NCBI GenBank assembly: GCA_963757865.1
Contig: CAVWSU010000013.1
Location: 320,350 to 384,349 of the forward strand
DNA length: 64,000 nt
Direction of reading: 5' to 3'
DNA from: an uncultured Chloroflexia bacterium
GTDB lineage: Bacteria; Chloroflexota; Limnocylindria; Limnocylindrales; CSP1-4
The position numbers and the translations under genes are program-made. The notes beneath the pieces are model-generated. The model had not been told where the DNA came from. It ran no database searches and saw only the letters and a program-made list of their open reading frames with translations. This document shows positions 32,979-64,000 of this stretch, in pieces. The number at the start of each line of letters is the position of its first letter. Positions within the stretch are counted from its first letter, which is position 1.

Positions 32979-33712
32979 TCTCCGACGTTGTGACGATCGC
33001 CTGGAAGGACCTCCGGGAGGTGCTGCTGCAGTCGGGGACGCTGCGGAAGTCCCTGCGCGGCCTGCTGTTCTCGTTCCTCATCTTCGGCGTATTCCTGCCC
33101 CTCCAGATCGGCCCGGACCTCGTGCGCGAACCCGCCGCGATCCTGCCGTTCGCCTGGGTGCCGCTGCTGCTCGCGAGCGGGATGGTCGCCGACGGGATCG
33201 CGGGCGAGCGCGAGCGTCATACCCTCGAGACGCTGCTGGCGAGCAGGCTCTCGGACCGGGCGATCCTGTTCGGCAAGGTCGTCGCCGCCATCGCCTACGG
33301 CTGGGGCTTCATGCTGGTCAGCGCGGCCGTGGGGCTCGTCACCGTGAACCTCGCCAACACGGGCCACGGGATCCTGCTGTACTCGCCCGTGGCACTCGTG
33401 CTGCTCGGCGTGTTCGGCGTGCTCGGGGCCGGGCTGGTCGCGACCGGCGGGGCCCTCGTTGCGCTGCGGGCTCCGACGGTTCGCCAGGCGGCGCAGAACA
33501 TGAACCTGGCGATCTTCGCGGTGATCCTGGTCCCCGTCCTCGCGCTGCAGGTCCTGCCGGAGGATGTCCGCCGGCAGGTGTTCACCACGCTGAGCGGGCT
33601 CGACTGGCCGACGATCGGGGCCGGCGCGGCAGTGTTCCTCGCGGTCGCTGACCTGCTTCTGCTGAGCGCGGCGATGGCGCGGTTCCAGCGGGCGCGGCTG
33701 ATCCTGGACTGA
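32975..33712 (+). CDS. ABC-2 type permease
   Basis: AGERERHTLETLLASRLSD...LFGK motif; six TM segments. Confidence 0.88.
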   Translation: MISDVVTIAWKDLREVLLQSGTLRKSLRGLLFSFLIFGVFLPLQIGPDLVREPAAILPFAWVPLLLASGMVADGIAGERERHTLETLLASRLSDRAILFGKVVAAIAYGWGFMLVSAAVGLVTVNLANTGHGILLYSPVALVLLGVFGVLGAGLVATGGALVALRAPTVRQAAQNMNLAIFAVILVPVLALQVLPEDVRRQVFTTLSGLDWPTIGAGAAVFLAVADLLLLSAAMARFQRARLILD

Positions 33713-33786
33713 CGCCCGCCGGGGTTTCGGCAGGGCTCGTGGTGCCGGCCGGCGGCCTCGCAGGTCCAACCGGGCAGGTGCTCGGA

Positions 33787-33806
33787 TAGCACAGATGTTC
33801 TATACT
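33787..33806 (+). promoter_or_regulatory. SOS box and -10 element of dnaE2
   Basis: TAGCACAGATGTTCTA (one mismatch to GAAC-N4-GTTC) abutting TATACT; same geometry as at imuA. Confidence 0.75.
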
Positions 33807-33829
33807 GGCGTGCCGTTTCGAGGCCAGCA

Positions 33830-36800
33830 TTGCCGCGGTACGCCGAGCTCCACTGCCACACCGAGTTCTCGTTCCTCGACGGAGCGTCGTCCGCCGACGA
33901 CCTCGTCGAACGTGCGGCGCAGCTCGGCATCGAGTCGCTCGGGGTCACGGATCACCAGGGCCTGTACGGCGCGGTCCGGTTCGTCACGGCGGCCCAGTCG
34001 GTCGGGATCCATCCCGTCGTCGGCGTGGAGATCGAGCTGCTCGACGCGGCGGTCGCCGATCCGCATGGGCTGGTGGTGCCGGCACGACGCAGGGCGCGGA
34101 AGCCGGTGCCGGCCCGGGCGGAGTGGGAGCCGTGGGACGCGGACCAGTCGGGTGTCGATGACCGTGCCGTGGAAGCGCGACCCGTCACCGGAGGACCCGA
34201 GTCGGGGCGACCGGTCCATCCCCGGGCGGAGCGGGCCCGTCTTCCCGGCCACCGCGAGCCCGTGCGCGAGGACCTGCGCGGGGTGGGGGACGGCCAGCGG
34301 GGCCCGCATCTCGTGCTGCTCGCCCGCGACCAGGCGGGTTACCGGAGTCTCTCGCGGCTCGTCAGCGCCGCGAACCTCGCCGGCTCCAAGGGCGTCCCGC
34401 GATTCACGCACGCGCTGCTCGAGCGTCACGCGGAGGGAGTCGTGGCGCTTTCCGGGTGCCGGCACGGCGAGATCGCACGGCGGCTCCTGGCGGGCGATCG
34501 GGAGGGCGCGGCCAGGGCGGCGGAGCGCTACGCGCGGATGTTCGACGCCACGAGCGAGCGTGCCCGCGGGGGCGGGCGTGCGTCGGGCACGCGGGTCGGA
34601 TCCGTCGGCAACCGGTTCGCGGACCGTGGGATCGTCGGTCGAGGTTTCCCGGACTCGGGCGCCCCGGGCGGCGGTCGAGGCCTCCCGGCCACTTCGGCCA
34701 ACTCGGCCAATTCGGGCGACCCCGGGCAACTCGGGCGGCCTGTTCCAGTTCCGACGCAGCCGGGGAGCCATCGGCGGGTTCGTCCTCGAGCTCCAGCATC
34801 ACCTGTTGCCGGACGACGACTGGCTCGTGGCCGAGACGGTCCGGCTCGCCGCGGAACTCGGCCTTCCGGTTGCCGTCACGAACGACGTCCACTACGCACT
34901 CCGCGAGGACCGCGAGCTGCAGGACGTGATGGTCGCGATCCACCACGGCCTGACGCTGGACGAGTCGGCGCATCTTCGGCGCCCGAACGGAGAGTTCCAC
35001 CTGAAGCCGGCGGCCGACCTGCTCGCGTTGCCGCCGGGCGACCCCGATGCCGACCCCGCGATCCGGCGGGCCTGGTCGGAGGGCATGACGACCGCGGCCG
35101 AGATCGCCGAAACCTGCCGGGTCGACCTGGGATTCGAGCGCTACCGGTTCCCGGGATTCGAGGTGCCGAAGGGCGAGACGCCGTTCAGCCACCTCGAGGC
35201 ACTCTGCCACGAGGGGGCACGGCGCAGATATCACCCGCTCACGCTGCGCGTGCTCTCGCAGCTCGCCCACGAGCTCGACGTGATCTCGCAGACGGGGCTG
35301 GCCGAGTTCTTCCTGATCTGCTGGGACCTGATGGCGTTCGCGCGGGAGCGGGGCATCCCGGCGCAGGGGAGGGGGAGCGCCGGCGATTCGATCGTCGCGT
35401 ACGTGCTCGGCATCACGCGGGTCGATCCCATCCGCCACAACCTGCTGTTCGAGCGGTTCATCAACGAGGGTCGCACGAGCTACCCCGACGTGGACATCGA
35501 CTTCGCCTCGTCCCGGCGCGAGGAGGTGATCCAGTACGTCTACGAGCGGTACGGCCCGGAGCACACGGGGATGGTCTGCAACGTCATCACGTACCGGGCG
35601 CGATCGGCCGTGCGGGAGGTCGGCTGCGCGCTGGGGTTCCCGCGTCCGCTGGTCGACCGGGTCGCGAAGGCGCTCGAGACCTACGACTCGGTGATGGTCC
35701 GGCGCGACCTGGAAGCGGAGGGCGGATTCGCGGAGTTCTTCGCGCTGCCCGAGGCGGCCACCGACGACTCCGGCCGTGCGGCCCGGCCGACCACGGCCGT
35801 GCTGGCCTGGCCGACGACTCCGGCCGTGCTGGCCCAGCGGGCGGCGGGCATCGTGCCCGGGGCGGTCCTGGCCGAGCAGGCATCGGGAATCGTGCCCCAG
35901 CCGGCGACCCGGGCGGTCCTTCGGGCCGTGCTGGCTCAGCCGGCGACCCGGGCCGTGCTGGCCCGGACGGTCCTGCCCAGGCCGGCGCCGGGAATCCTGC
36001 AGAACGCGCTCCCATGGAACGGTATGTCGGTTACGGGCGCCCGGAAGGCGTTCCCGGGGGGGAAGTTGGGACGTCCGGACGCTCTTCCCCGCACGATCCG
36101 GGCGTGAGGGGCGGCCGAATCGCGACCCTCCCAGGACGGGAGCCCCGGCCGATCGGACATACCGTTCTGCAGGAGCACGAATTGCATGATTGGCATGGGG
36201 TGGCGAGTCACGGACCCGACGCGGGTCGCGAACCCGACCGCGCGGCCGATCGCGAACCCGACGGCGCGGCCGATCCCAGACCCGGCGGCGCCGATCCCGA
36301 ATCCGGCGGCGTGGCCGATCACGAACTCGACGCGGGATCAGGTCACGAGCCGGACCTCTCGCGCCTGGCGGCCGACCCCGGATCATTCGCGACCTTCGAC
36401 TCGGGCAACGGCACGGTTTCTCCGGCGGTCGCGCGAGCCGTCGCCGCCTCGACCGGGTTCGTCGACGAGATGGGTCAGCTCAACCATGCGCGCGGTGGCC
36501 GCTGGAGACGGGCCGGACACGGGCTCTCCGGCGCGGGCCCGGATCCCGACGAGCACGGGGATGGGCGGCGGGTGCGTCGCGAGGATATCGGCCGGACCGA
36601 GGCCGGAACCGTCCGGCACCGCGGTCGGTCGGACGACGAGGGCGGGCCAGGGGATACGCCGGTGAGCGTTGCGTGGCTTCGGGCGGAGCGAGAGCACGGT
36701 CCGGGCCGCTGGCCCGAGGCGCCGGGGTGGGAATATCGAGAAGCGCCGGGAACCGTCGGCGGCCGGCGGATCGATCCCGAGAGCGGCGTGCTGCTGCCGG

Positions 36801-39800
36801 CCGAGCGACGGATCGACGGCCCGGCCGAGCGACACGCGGAGCTGGGGCGGATGGTCGACGGAGCCGGACACCGGATCGACGGCGCCTCGGAGCCGGCCGC
36901 GAGCGGCCACGGACCCGCGAGCGGCCACGGACCCGCGAGCGGCCACGGACCCGCGAGCGGCCACGTACCCCGCTCCAGCGTCGCCCGACTCGAGCCCGAG
37001 CCTCCGCCGGAACGTCGTGCGGGCTCCACCATCGGACTGTCGCCATGGGAGCGCTGGCTCGAGCTGTGCGCGCGCATCGACGGCCGCCCCCGGCACCTCG
37101 GCATCCACGTCGGCGGCATGCTCGTCACGGCCGCCCCCCTCGTCGAGATCGCCCCCCTCGAGCGTGCCTCGATGGCCGGCCGGGTCGTCGTCCAGTTCGA
37201 CAAGCGCGACGTCGAGACGATGAAGCTCATCAAGCTCGACCTGCTCGGCCTGCGCATGCTGTCGGCGATGGACGATGCCCTGCGCGACGTCACGGCCGAC
37301 TGCGGGGTGGGACTCGACCTGGACCGCCTCCCCGAGGACCTGCCCGACGTCTTCCGCATGATCCGCGCCGCCGACACGACCGGCGTCTTCCAGATCGAGT
37401 CGCGGGCGCAGATGCAGACGCTGCCGAAATCAGCGCCGACCACCCTGGACGACCTGGTGGTCGAGGTCGCGATCATCCGCCCCGGCCCGATCCAGGGCAA
37501 CGCCGTGCATCCGTACCTGCGCCGCCGGCAGGGGCTCGAACCCGTCGCGTACCTCCACCCCAGCCTCGAGCCCATCCTGCGCGAGACCCTGGGCGTGATC
37601 CTGTACCAGGAGCAGGTGATGGAGATCGCCATCCAGGTCGCGGGCTTCAGCGCGGCCGAGTCGGATGGATTCCGGCGTGCCATGGGGACCTGGCGGTCGA
37701 GCCGTGAGATGGAGAAGCTCCATCGGAGGTTCGTGGAAGGGTGCCTGGACGTGAGCGGTCTCGACGACGAGCAGGCCGAGGAGCTGTTCCGGCAGGTCGC
37801 CGCCTTCGCGAGTTTCGGCTTCAACAAGAGCCACGCGGCGGCGTTCGCGCGGACCGCGTACGAGTCGGCGTTCCTGAAGCTCTACTACCCGGCGCAGTTC
37901 ACGGCGGGCCTCGTCAACAACCAGCCGATGGGGTTCTATCCGGTCGAGGTGCTGATCAACGACGCGAAGCGCCACGGCGTGGCGGTGCTGCCGGTGGACG
38001 TGAACCGGAGCCGGTTCCGGACCACGACCGAGTGGGTGGGGATGCCGGGCCAGCCTCTGCCCGAGGGATGCGGGATCGAGCACAGGCCGCCGGTCGTGCG
38101 CTCGTCGGGGTGTGTCGTGCCGGATCGCCGGACGCGCCGGCAGCTTGCGGCCGAGTCGGCCGAGGGGTACGGGGTCCGGCTGGGGCTCCACCTGGTGAAG
38201 GGGATCGGCCAGGAACACGCGGACCTGCTCGACGGCGAGCTGGAGCGTGGGCCGTACGGGTCGCTGGCGGACGTCGTGGCGCGCACCGGGCTGGCCGAAG
38301 AGGTGATCGAGCGACTGATCCGGGCCGGTGCCCTCGATTCGCTGGGCCGGCCCCGACGCGAGCTGCTGTGGCAGCTGCGCGAGGTGGCGACGTCGACGGG
38401 GCGGACGAAGACGGGCGCGACGACGACGGGTGCGACGACGACGGACGAAGACGCGCGACGACGGACGAGTGCCCCGACGACGACGGGTGCCCCGGGACCG
38501 GCGGGCACCTCGACGCGGACGGGTGGCCCAAGGCCGGCTCGGCACGTGCCTGTGAGGCGAGTCGAAGCGAGCTTGGAACCTGCCGGAACGCTGCCTGGCG
38601 GCATCCCATTGCCCGGACGCAGCTCGGTGCCCGGACGCGGCTTGCCGCCCGAACCCGGCTCGCCGCCCGAACCCGGCTCGGTGCCCGGACCTGGCTCACC
38701 GCCCGGACGCAGCTCGGTGCCCGAACCCAATCCTGCAGATCGCGTCCCTGCAGAAACGTATGTCGGATCCGGGGACGTTGCGGACGCTCTCTGGGCTCCT
38801 CCGGCAGGGTCCCGCGCCATCTCCGAGCACGAAGAGGGCACGAAACGGCGCAGCCTCGAGCCGATCGGGGGGCGGGGTGGCGCCGCCAACCGACATACCG
38901 TTCCCCACGAGCGTGTTTTGCAGGATATGCCGGGCTCCTCCCCGTCGCCGGGCTCCTCCCCGTCGCCGGGCTCCTCCCCGTCGCCGGGCTCCTCCCCGTC
39001 GCCGGGCTCCTCCCCGTCGCCGGGCTCTCCCCGCCGCCGCAGGCCGCTCGGTTGCGCCTGTCCGTGCCGAAAGTGCTAGCGATGTCCGATACGAGTTCGG
39101 GAGACGCGGCCCACGCCCAGCCGGGCATGGAGCCGGCCACCCAGGCCGCCCGGGGCGAACTCGGAATGGAGCCGGCCACCCGGGCCGCCTGGGGCGAACC
39201 CGGAATGGAGCCGGACCCGTCGGCTCAGCCGGGAATGGAGCCGGCCACCCGGGCCGCCTGGGGCGAACCCGGAATGGAGCCGGACCCGTCGGCCCAACCA
39301 CGGACGTATGCCCCGGCGGTCCTGGACCTGCGATTGCCACCCACCGACGCGCCGGATCTGCCGCCTCCCACCGAGGTCGAGAGGCTGGCCGACAGCTACG
39401 CGATCCTCTCGCTCGACGCGAGGCGTCAGGTGGTGGAGCTGTTCCGCCCCGCGCTGGATCGCCTCGGCGTGACCCCCAACGCGAGCCTCGCCGATCGGCG
39501 CCCAGGTCGGGTTCGAATCGCGGGCCTGGTCGTGACCCGGCAGCATCCGATGACGGCACGCGGCACCGTCTTCCTCGCGCTCGAGGACGAGACGGCGATG
39601 GTCAACGTCACGCTGTGGCCCGACCAGTGGGCCAGGTTCCGATCGGTCGTGCGGCGCCACGCACTCCTGTGGATCGACGGCGAACTGCAGCGGGAGGCGA
39701 GTGTCGTGAACGTGGTGGCGCACGACGTGCGCGCCCTTCCGGCCGTCGCACGGACCGCCGGGGGTCCCGAGCCCCCAGGTGGAATCCGGGCACAGGGCTA

Positions 39801-39822
39801 CTCGGGACTGCGACGAGGGTAG
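33830..39822 (+). CDS. dnaE2: Error-prone DNA polymerase III alpha DnaE2, very long, interrupted by three single-base frameshifts (~34770, 35779/80, 39026/27)
   Basis: PHP domain (ELHCH, TDH, NDVHY), YPDVDIDF, KLDLLG, FGFNKSHAAAF, C-terminal OB fold (AGLVVTRQHPMTARGTVFLALEDE) spread over three frames. Reconstructed length ~1,997 aa. Confidence 0.88.
35994..36190. mobile_element. 197-bp MITE/palindromic element, copy 1, inside dnaE2
   Basis: 37-bp imperfect inverted ends ATCCTGCAGAACGCGCTCCCATGGAACGGTATGTCGG and rc ATCATGCAATTCGTGCTCCTGCAGAACGGTATGTCCG (27/37). Confidence 0.7.
36899..36970 (+). repeat. 4 x 18-bp tandem repeat (ASGHGP) in a dnaE2 insert
   Basis: GCGAGCGGCCACGGACCC three times plus one copy with a single mismatch. 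Confidence 0.9.
38730..38926. mobile_element. 197-bp MITE/palindromic element, copy 2 (opposite orientation), inside dnaE2
   Basis: Ends ATCCTGCAGATCGCGTCCCTGCAGAAACGTATGTCGG and rc ATCCTGCAAAACACGCTCGTGGGGAACGGTATGTCGG; the latter matches the copy-1 left end at 31/37. Confidence 0.7.
38929..39035 (+). repeat. 5 x 18-bp tandem repeat plus a partial sixth unit lacking one C
   Basis: GCCGGGCTCCTCCCCGTC five times, then GCCGGGCTC-TCCCCG. Confidence 0.9.
39118..39300 (+). repeat. Nested repeats (PGMEPATRAAWGE / PGMEPDPSAQ) in a dnaE2 insert
   Basis: GG(A/C)ATGGAGCCGG recurs five times within longer duplicated units. Confidence 0.8.
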
Positions 39823-40135
39823 CGATCCGCGACGAGGGCAACGATCGGCGCCAGGAACGCGATCGACGCGAGGATGCGCGAGCGGCGCGAGAGCAGGCGA
39901 TCGGCGACGAAGACCCGCGATCGCCGAGGAAGGCGATCGGCGGCGCGAGAGCAGGCCATCGGCGTGGGTCGGCGACAGGGCGGCGATCGGCGGCGCGAGA
40001 GCAGGCGGGATCGTTGACGAGGGTAACCGACCGGCGACTAGGGCAGGCGACCGGCGACGAGGGCAAGCGACCCGCGACGCGGAAGCGATCGGCTCAAGAA
40101 CAGGCGATCCGCCACTGGGTCAGACGATCGGCGCC
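39823..40135. repeat. Degenerate intergenic repeat array
   Basis: Many copies of a GCGATCGGCG(A/G)CG-type core; CGGCGCGAGAGCAGGC appears three times. Confidence 0.65.
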
Positions 40136-40157
40136 GGCTGGAGCCCAGCGGTCGAGC

Positions 40158-40859
40158 TCAGCGGGCCCGCTTCGCCTCAGGGCGTCGTGCATCCCGGCGC
40201 TGCGCGCGCTTGCGTGCCTCGGCCGCCTCCCGGCTGCGAGCCTGGGAACGGCGGAGGAAGTCGCGGTACCACGACGCGAACCAGCCGAAGATGGCGCCGG
40301 TGAGAACGAACTGCACGAGCTGCCAGAGCGAGTACAGCACGCGGTCGGTAACGCTCATCGTGTCCAGCGTGGCGAACATGCCGACCAGCCCCAGCGCAAG
40401 CACCACGAACAGCACCGAAGCGACCAGGCCGAGGAGCGCCCCGAACAGGTACGCGCCGCGGGGGACCAGGAAGCCGACCGCGAAGAACAGCAGCGTCGGC
40501 TGCAGGAAGGCGAGCTGCACGTACAGCGACGCGATACCTGCACCGTTCACCTGGTCCCTGGGCAGCACCGCGGCCACGATCGCGCCCACCACGAGCAGCG
40601 CGAACGGGACGAGGATCAGCGGCTTTTCCCGCGCCACGGCCGGCGCGGCCTGCAGGTCGGCGCCGACGTCCGGCATGTGGAACCGCCCGATCGCCCGGCG
40701 CGCAGATTCGACCAGGGATGTCGGGGGCTCGGACGGCGAGCGCCCGGATGACGAGTGCTCGAACGAGGCGTCGCGATCGGCTGCCGCGACATCTGTGACC
40801 TGCGTCGCGCGATAGCGCTTTCGAGCTTCGGCGCGCTCGGTCCTCTTTGCGCGGGCCAA
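40158..40859 (-). CDS. Hypothetical 4-TM membrane protein with basic termini
   Basis: AAAGGAG RBS before TTG 40859; hydrophobic core flanked by Arg/Lys-rich ends. Confidence 0.7.
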   Translation of the reverse strand: MARAKRTERAEARKRYRATQVTDVAAADRDASFEHSSSGRSPSEPPTSLVESARRAIGRFHMPDVGADLQAAPAVAREKPLILVPFALLVVGAIVAAVLPRDQVNGAGIASLYVQLAFLQPTLLFFAVGFLVPRGAYLFGALLGLVASVLFVVLALGLVGMFATLDTMSVTDRVLYSLWQLVQFVLTGAIFGWFASWYRDFLRRSQARSREAAEARKRAQRRDARRPEAKRAR

Positions 40860-41056
40860 CGATCGACTCCTTTGCTGCGCCTGACGGCCGGCGGGGTGCT
40901 CGGCCGGCGGCACCTGTGCGCACTCGGATGATCCGGGCGACGGTGCTCGGCCGGTGCTGCGCATGGTACCCCGACCGGGCCGGTAAGCGGGAGTGGATCG
41001 GCAATTGAGTCGACTGCGCTACAAGGGCGTTACCGCCGGCGCCCGGAGGTGCTGTC

Positions 41057-62978: not shown

Positions 62979-63407
62979 TCAGGCCGGCTCGCGCCGGAAG
63001 ATCCCGACGGCCCAGAGGATGACCAGCTCGAGGATCGACCAGCCGATGAAGGCGACGATGGCGCTCACGTCGAGCACCGAGCCGCCCGATGTCAGGGCAT
63101 TCGTGTTGAGGATGCCCTCGAACGGGGCGACGAAGATCTTGCTCACGTCGAGGATGCCCGACACGAGGGCGTTGCCGGTGCGGGCGTCGAGCAGGAGCAG
63201 GACGATCCGCAGGCCGATCACGATCTGGATCAGGCCGAAGACGAGGATGATCACGCGACTGGCCAACTGGCCGCCGCCGATGGGCCGGGTGTCTGCCACG
63301 GGCCGGACGTCTGTCGTGGGCTGTGCGAGGGTGCGAGCCGGCTGGACGGCCGGAGTCGTGCCCGGCGGCCCCTCTGTGACGACGCCGGGTGCTTCCTGGA
63401 CGGTCAT
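62979..63407 (-). CDS. YggT family membrane protein
   Basis: IGLRIVLLLL...FVAPFEGI...DVSAIVAFIGW. Confidence 0.75.
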   Translation of the reverse strand: MTVQEAPGVVTEGPPGTTPAVQPARTLAQPTTDVRPVADTRPIGGGQLASRVIILVFGLIQIVIGLRIVLLLLDARTGNALVSGILDVSKIFVAPFEGILNTNALTSGGSVLDVSAIVAFIGWSILELVILWAVGIFRREPA

Positions 63408-63516
63408 GATTGCCACTTCCCCTGGCGACGGAGGACGAGGCACGCTGCCGGCCGAACGGCCGACTGGACCGTCGCTCCGAGGTCAACCCCGATCGTAGTC
63501 AACCCGCCCCCGCGTG

Positions 63517-63577
63517 CGCGAGGATGGAAACCCGCCCAGCTGGATACCCGGCGACAAGGCGGGTTTCCATCCTCGCG
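63517..63577. repeat. Perfect 20-bp inverted repeat with a 21-nt loop
   Basis: CGCGAGGATGGAAACCCGCC / GGCGGGTTTCCATCCTCGCG. Confidence 0.85.
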
Positions 63578-64000
63578 GGCACTCGCCCAAGCCCGCCAGA
63601 CTGGCGCGGGTCGAGCTCGCCATGCCCGACGTCCGCGAGAACCGGCTCGCGAGCGACCACGCGCGCCGCTGCGCGACGGGGGCGGCACGGCAGCTCATGC
63701 ACGCCGGGTAGGCCGCGTACGCTGCCACCGACGCCGTGCCAGGCCGGACCCGGTCGGAAAGGGGAGCGAACGAGAATGCTGGCGCGTCGATCCCCGGCCC
63801 GTGCCGTTGCAGTCCGTGGCGACCGCTGGCGGGTGGCTCGGTCGCCGAATGGTTCCGACCCCGGGCCCGCTGCGCGGGCGGGTTTCAGGCCCGAGACGGA
63901 GACAACAGGGCCCCGGCCCTTCTCCGCGTCTCGTCCATGAGACGGACGCCCGCCCTTCGCGACCGGCCGCGAATGCTCGGCGGGTCGGACGTCCTCCACG

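Follow-up and report, generated by a model that had tools for sequence, protein, structure and literature searches.

The window analysed here, a stretch of 64,000 nt corresponding to C13:320350-384349 in the genome of an uncultured Chloroflexia bacterium (G000; 3.43 Mb in 22 contigs, 72% GC, 89% complete), contains on its plus strand a dnaE2 gene whose coding sequence harbours two related repeat elements with inverted ends. Assignment to DnaE2, an error-prone polymerase alpha subunit of the ImuC type, follows from the presence of PHP, palm, finger, HhH and OB domains (Pfam) in a reading frame that ends just past the OB fold and lacks a C-terminal tau-binding tail; the best relatives of known structure are the DNA polymerase III (Pol III) alpha chains 2HPI and 5LEW, and a second Pol III alpha with 34% identity is encoded on contig C21. 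As deposited, the gene is split into four open segments. The PHP domain occupies segment 1 (33830..34720, frame 2) and is followed by segment 2 (34731..35777, frame 0) with the Pol III alpha palm/NTPase region, covering positions 2-183 of PF07733. Segment 3 (35780..39025, frame 2) is by far the longest with 1082 codons, and it runs from linker repeats and element 1 through the remainder of PF07733 and the finger and HhH domains to further linker repeats and element 2, so that palm positions 194-260, finger and HhH all read in frame 2. Finally, the OB fold and the stop codon, together with more linker repeats, fall in segment 4 (39028..39822, frame 1). Upstream of dnaE2, about 30 nt before the start, lies a LexA/Cheo-type palindrome TAGAAC-N4-GTTCTA, which is perfect in two relatives, G005 and G007 (L022, L013), and which in the window (33787-33802) reads TAGCACAGATGTTCTA, with a mismatch in one half-site; the start codon itself is TTG in the window and ATG in G005.

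Element 1 (35994..36190) and element 2 (38730..38926) are both 197 nt long. The left inverted end of the former (35994..36030) carries box 1 ATCCTGCAG and box 2 GGAACGGTATGTCGG, and its right inverted end (36154..36190) reads CGGACATACCGTTC...GAATTGCATGAT, while the equivalent ends of element 2 are found at 38730..38766 and 38890..38926. A first-pass annotation made from the letters of the sequence had already proposed these two elements, and in this regard its observations were sound: the imperfect inverted ends of 36-37 nt are real, with 27/37 matches within each element, the core CCGACATACCGTTC common to the ends occurs four times in the window for an expectation of 0.38, and recounting the end matches across copies gave the same 31/37 and 28/37. 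It was likewise right that the elements lack stops in the frame of the finger and HhH domains, both being included in the segment 35780-39025. With the base that precedes it (35993 and 38729, respectively), each element forms a block of 66 codons, the first measuring 198 nt, that is in frame and encodes the peptides NPAERAPMERYVG...HTVLQEHELHD for element 1 and NPADRVPAETYVG...HTVPHERVLQD for element 2. This block of 198 nt (66 codons) is also the unit found in intact orthologues, and not the net insertion of 195 nt that had been calculated by taking the terminal AT...AT as a 2-bp target duplication; most members of the repeat family described below read TT...AA at these positions, which are thus inverted and part of the repeat itself.

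Both copies lie in the same orientation: on the coding strand, the so-called B-type end comes 5′ and the A-type 3′. The opposite arrangement had earlier been deduced from the ends alone, where direct matches are in fact as good (28/37 and 28/37). The 123-nt interiors favour the direct alignment, with 58/123 identities against 41/123 when one copy is inverted and 37.7 ± 4.7 in shuffles. Moreover, both copies carry a B-like end on the left, an A-like end on the right and the centre motif GCACGA at +97 from the B-type end (36091..36096 in element 1, 38827..38832 in element 2), which serves as an orientation marker. It is because the interiors match directly and these three features agree that the two elements were judged to be co-oriented.

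The three frame changes of the gene fall outside the elements, as located by homology to G005 and by comparison between repeat units. Break 1 (34718..34742, frame 2 to 0) contains one base more than the in-frame reading of G005, a close relative, within GACCCCGGGCAACTCGGGCGGCCTG, at a site between PHP and palm that is in frame in eight relatives. Break 2 (35772..35784, frame 0 to 2) corresponds to GGCCGTGCGGCCC, from which the T of GGCCGTGCTGGC, a unit repeated four times, is missing; read as Gly-Arg-Ala-Gly, it agrees with the in-frame reading of G005. Break 3 (39019..39033, frame 2 to 1) falls in the sixth unit of an 18-nt repeat, GCCGGGCTCTCCCCG, which is short of one C in comparison with the five preceding units GCCGGGCTCCTCCCCG. 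At every break, a single base sets the sequence apart from the adjoining repeat units or from G005. The first two breaks precede element 1 by ~1270 and ~215 nt, and the third follows element 2 after ~100 nt. A plot of GC content at third codon positions, which put the changes of frame right at the elements, was discarded as misleading, given that in the GGC-CGT-GCT-GGC repeats the wrong frame is the one with the higher value. Frame changes of a similar kind were met elsewhere. In G007, whose assembly is highly contiguous and whose dnaE2 is element-free, the frame changes between PHP and palm inside a G-rich run (L013 4028-4100, AAGGGGSIGG region), and in the secA gene of G000 (C12:~63400-63600) the C-terminal zinc-binding tail lies in another frame than the SecA body, past an Ala/Gly-rich linker, again through a one-base break in DNA of low complexity.

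Three related uncultured Chloroflexi/Chloroflexia metagenome-assembled genomes (MAGs), namely G005 (MFD01872.bin.2.101), G001 (DBS2-1.bin55) and G006 (DBS1-1.bin137), have both elements in dnaE2, each at the site that it occupies in G000. The first is a Nanopore-only long-read MAG of the Microflora Danica project and the other two are short-read assemblies. All eight dnaE2 copies (two sites in four species) are exactly 197 nt long, or 198 nt with the leading base, stop-free and in the single phase xAT CCT GCA...CAG GAT. In G006 the protein is encoded by one open reading frame from Met to stop that runs through both elements, and in G001 it is equally uninterrupted through both, over two contigs with an overlap of 137 nt. 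Since these orthologues are uninterrupted with the elements present, the elements are read through in frame and the breaks of the window are specific to its assembly. On the other hand, the two sites are empty in at least seven related species for the three, besides G000, in which they are occupied: the model of the element ends found no match in any of the dnaE2 loci of G007, G009, G002, G012, G015, G017 and G018, and the genes of G007 and G009 have short linkers devoid of elements. The region of element 1 maps within the palm, between about residues 525 and 559 of the Thermus aquaticus Pol III alpha (2HPI), where the element-free protein of G009 already has an insert of ~220 aa, and that of element 2 between the HhH and OB domains. 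From these sequence comparisons both regions would evidently be places of free length.

The peptides encoded by the elements behave as neutral passengers. Their ratio of nonsynonymous to synonymous substitution (dN/dS) amounts to 0.6-1.45, in contrast with 0.08-0.10 for the polymerase core, a range that includes the pairs with G000. Between species, the identity of the element ends is 0.55-0.80 and that of the interiors 0.33-0.58, compared with 0.59-0.72 at the four-fold degenerate sites of the core.

The dnaE2 elements belong to a dispersed repeat family. A hidden Markov model (HMM) built from the four dnaE2 element ends was run over the whole genome, and the search for further copies, which the first reading had called for, recovered 28 paired elements, whose lengths range over 175-228 nt and peak at 206-208 nt; the E-values of the ends go down to 6e-10. 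Two more copies have one degenerate end each, and altogether these 28 + 2 copies are spread over nine contigs; four of them lie inside 14 kb (C19:109890-123793), and a similar cluster exists on C23 of G005. The inverted ends span 36-40 nt, with 73-75% complementarity in the dnaE2 copies. A typical copy reads CT-TTCCTGCAG...GGAAACGTATGTCGG...interior...CCGACATACGTTTCC...CTGCAGGAA-AG, and the boxes CTTTCCTGCAG and GGAAACGTATGTCGG together with the centre motif are common to the copies, the interiors of which are nearly unalignable with one another. The family is directional: the B-type end is characterised by GCAGATC and the A-type end by GCAATTC, and GCACGA stands ~97-108 nt from the former. 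According to our own codon-usage gene calls, 26/28 paired copies are intergenic, often between convergent genes, and the only intragenic copies of this genome are the two in dnaE2. Intergenic copies contain stops in every frame and their lengths show no preference for any class modulo 3 (8/10/8), from which it follows that the family is not a coding module. In terms of RNA, a scan of 33000-41000 against Rfam at E<=1 matched no family, and folding of all copies paired the ends but did not turn the interiors into a single hairpin (z from -0.1 to -6 with mononucleotide shuffles); covariation supporting an RNA structure was absent from the family copies. The family has been seen in a handful of uncultured MAGs only and is confined to part of one genus of high-GC Chloroflexi. 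Altogether, the data support a previously unrecognised family resembling MITEs, or miniature inverted-repeat transposable elements, as had been suspected. Its copies in dnaE2 are tolerated in frame, but the broader notion of a family tolerated inside proteins did not survive, with 26/28 paired copies between genes, a single intragenic host and no mod-3 preference.

The resemblance to MITEs stems from the short length with terminal inverted repeats, the dispersed copies, the lack of coding capacity and the insertion polymorphism, seen at both dnaE2 sites and in the clpX-valS and prs-secA spacers, where some species of the genus have a copy and others do not. Between clpX and valS, a copy is present in G000, G005, G001 and G013 and missing from G007, G009, G011 and G012, the spacer measuring ~730 nt with the copy versus tens of nucleotides without it. 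Between prs and secA, G000 is the only one with a copy among ten genomes, which include the family-bearing G001, G006 and G013. The clpX-valS spacer (C5:66150-67250; L029, L030, L025) also contains, next to the family element, tandem repeats of ~95 and 19 nt, and a leader-like sequence before valS is conserved in all genomes compared; it has no Rfam match, and the label of T-box was for this reason not adopted. No direct repeat was found outside the copies that could represent a target-site duplication, and the CT...AG flanks are inverted and part of the repeat; the spacers at clpX-valS and prs-secA are too diverged and padded with repeats to align empty and occupied sites to the base, and a nucleoside hydrolase neighbour that had been considered as an anchor was dropped, being common to G005 only. 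As for an autonomous relative, all end matches in this genome pair at ~200 nt and none are spaced 0.7-3 kb, and the transposase with matching ends that the first-pass annotation envisaged was looked for in this 89%-complete genome and not found.

Species-specific tandem repeats surround the elements, in dnaE2 as well as at the intergenic sites. The dnaE2 linkers are short in species that lack the elements. Around element 1, repeats of ~39 nt with GGCCGTGCTGGC units (35761..35964; families D6, D9, D11, D16) are found upstream and repeats of 21-24 nt (36197..36336; families D8, D17, D19) directly 3′. Around element 2, 18-nt repeats (38593..38736; family D2) abut and enter the left end, and other 18-nt repeats (38929..39050; family D1) follow directly 3′, all of them on the plus strand. 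Duplications that take in an element terminus were observed at 38593-38736 of the window, at the right end of element 1 and the left end of element 2 in G006, and at the right end of element 1 and the clpX copy in G001. Partial extra termini located 40-60 nt outside full elements (L018 3943-4031 and 1284-1370; L023 470-563; L032 319-402) indicate that the tandem duplications begin inside the element ends. Hairpin-induced slippage or nicking at the ends could be the cause of this association, although this is speculation. Further in-frame repetition, of 39- and 69-nt units (GGAATGGAGCCGGCCACCCGGGCCGCCTGGGGCGAACCC...), is seen past element 2 in the linker that leads to the OB fold (39124-39299), and many other genes of the genome end in in-frame tandem repeats, as exemplified by the C-terminus of PRPP synthetase on C12.

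The interpretation that we regard as highly likely is that old MITE-like copies reside in linkers of DnaE2, where they are read through as neutral peptides, and that the frame changes have nothing to do with them. Non-autonomous elements would have landed twice, in the same orientation, in unstructured low-complexity linkers, namely one within the palm and one that joins HhH to OB. Each insertion would contribute exactly 66 codons that are transcribed and translated with the protein and tolerated as a neutral passenger, with no excision, splicing or bypass involved. Tandem repeats would later have expanded around the elements, bringing DnaE2 from ~1050-1180 aa to ~1700-2000 aa. The three frame changes of the window, single-base insertions or deletions in repeats, would be errors of the long-read consensus or, failing that, very recent slippage mutations. 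The former origin is probable and the latter has a minor chance. All three breaks lie in very GC-rich low-complexity repeats; MAGs of the Microflora Danica type are assembled from Nanopore reads alone, with a single Medaka polishing round (PMC12313526), the dnaE2 of G005 is riddled with insertions and deletions, and the contiguity of G000 suggests a similar long-read origin. Only 37/2925 called genes bear the signature of a 5′ truncation, and the assembly is mostly clean.

Several points nevertheless weigh against this interpretation. That the elements are translated is something we infer from the integrity of the open reading frames only, and 65% of the intergenic copies are also open in the dnaE2 phase, which makes stop-freeness in itself a weak and non-significant argument. 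Transposition is likewise deduced, as neither a target duplication nor an autonomous element or transposase accompanies the copies. The length of exactly 197 nt in all eight dnaE2 copies, despite nearly saturated interiors, is more than neutrality alone explains. Furthermore, three insertions or deletions in one 6-kb gene are far above the genome-wide rate, and the mismatch in the LexA-like box upstream of dnaE2 and the TTG start add to the possibility of a recent inactivation of the gene.

Such an inactivation is the essence of one rival explanation, in which the dnaE2 of this genome would be a genuine but very recent pseudogene, or an allele switched off by slippage, with the elements as older passengers. 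The density of breaks speaks for it (three in 6 kb against ~37 candidates in 3.4 Mb), as do a mismatch in the LexA-like box that G005 and G007 lack and the use of TTG in place of ATG as the start codon. It has to face, however, conserved domains without stops and pairwise dN/dS values for G000 of 0.08-0.10, like those of other species, as well as breaks that all sit where errors of the long-read consensus are expected, in low-complexity GC-rich repeats, with a like break in the low-complexity linker of the essential gene SecA; we hold it to be unlikely. Far less credible is the alternative left open in the first-pass annotation, in which the elements would be taken out ahead of decoding or in the course of it, whether by excision from DNA, by RNA splicing or by ribosomal bypass; the intact orthologues refute it, and it has next to no chance of being correct. 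Its appeal is arithmetic: two of the three breaks are mended when 197 nt (2 mod 3) are taken out, since frame 0 continues into frame 2 without 35994-36190 and frame 2 into frame 1 without 38730-38926. In addition, the inverted ends could pair in RNA. But any -1 change is mended arithmetically by a removal of 2 mod 3, with a chance of coincidence of roughly 1 in 4, and the same removal would break the frame in G001 and G006, whose open reading frames run through the elements. In the window itself, both elements lie inside one open segment of 1082 codons with conserved domains, breaks 2 and 3 coincide with repeat units deviating by one base at 100-215 nt from the elements, and signals of an intron, a ribozyme or an Rfam family are missing.

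A different type of rival grants the elements a function, either as palindromes maintained by the host in the manner of REP/ERIC sequences or as dnaE2 copies co-opted at the level of DNA, RNA or protein. Many copies between convergent genes, the lack of a target-site duplication or transposase, and ends and centre more conserved than interiors even in orthologous copies are in keeping with it, and so is the constant 197 nt of the eight dnaE2 copies when compared with the orthologous copy at clpX-valS, which measures 207 nt in G000 but 302 nt in G001. Yet the ends are no more identical than the four-fold sites of the core, the dN/dS of the peptides is ~1, presence and absence vary among close species at three loci, and covariation is lacking with moderate fold z-scores, all of which make this explanation rather improbable. 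Still more doubtful is a reading in which the elements would remain substrates of a trans-acting activity or form DNA hairpins, thereby driving the duplications and preserving ends and length, and in which the breaks would be real OFF switches; if it were true, the gene of an SOS-regulated mutagenic polymerase would become a slippage-prone contingency locus.

Intragenic MITEs that create in-frame fusions are already known, among them the Rickettsia palindromic elements (PMC10969869), which as summarised there occur as in-frame protein-coding inserts in dozens of unrelated genes (Ogata et al. 2000). The analogy with them, drawn from the outset, is valid in part. Like these elements, the repeats described here are short and palindromic (~100-200 bp), lack a transposase, are tolerated and apparently translated in frame within intact open reading frames, occupy sites compatible with the fold and are common to related species. 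Unlike them, they have hit a single gene with two copies, the rest being intergenic, and they have done so in linkers that were already of low complexity and are ringed by expanding tandem repeats. The Rickettsia hosts are obligate intracellular alphaproteobacteria and the present host is a free-living high-GC member of the Chloroflexi; the likeness is one of mode of existence only. With other bacterial MITEs (Correia, Nezha, ERIC including intragenic ERIC, and those of Anabaena; PMC10969869) the family shares its small dimensions (175-228 nt), terminal inverted repeats that are imperfect and ~40 nt long, the non-coding character, tens of dispersed copies, insertion polymorphism and occasional in-frame fusions; it departs from them in having neither a detected target-site duplication nor a parent insertion sequence, in its two distinguishable end types and conserved centre motif, and in interiors that are almost saturated, with no sign of a recent burst. 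REP/BIME palindromes are also mostly intergenic and often lie between convergent genes, but the elements are much longer, with a non-palindromic interior of 120 nt, and two copies are inside a gene. Finally, inteins, introns and bypass elements offer the parallel of a replication or repair polymerase gene that is interrupted yet not destroyed. Motifs of inteins, introns or ribozymes were nonetheless absent from dnaE2 (Pfam domain annotation, and Rfam over 33000-41000), and the sequence of the elements is in frame and open in orthologues, so that no removal is needed.

Altogether, the family is new, and the phenomenon of in-frame insertion that it illustrates was already known from Rickettsia. 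These repeats offer a clean case, outside that genus, of selfish repeat DNA inside an intact and selected protein, with a peptide that would drift neutrally across species, and they indicate that insertion along with the surrounding tandem repeats can make a polymerase almost twice as long. In practical terms, frame breaks in GC-rich low-complexity linkers of these MAGs should not be taken as signals of recoding, and the repeat family can be used for the annotation of these soil Chloroflexi.

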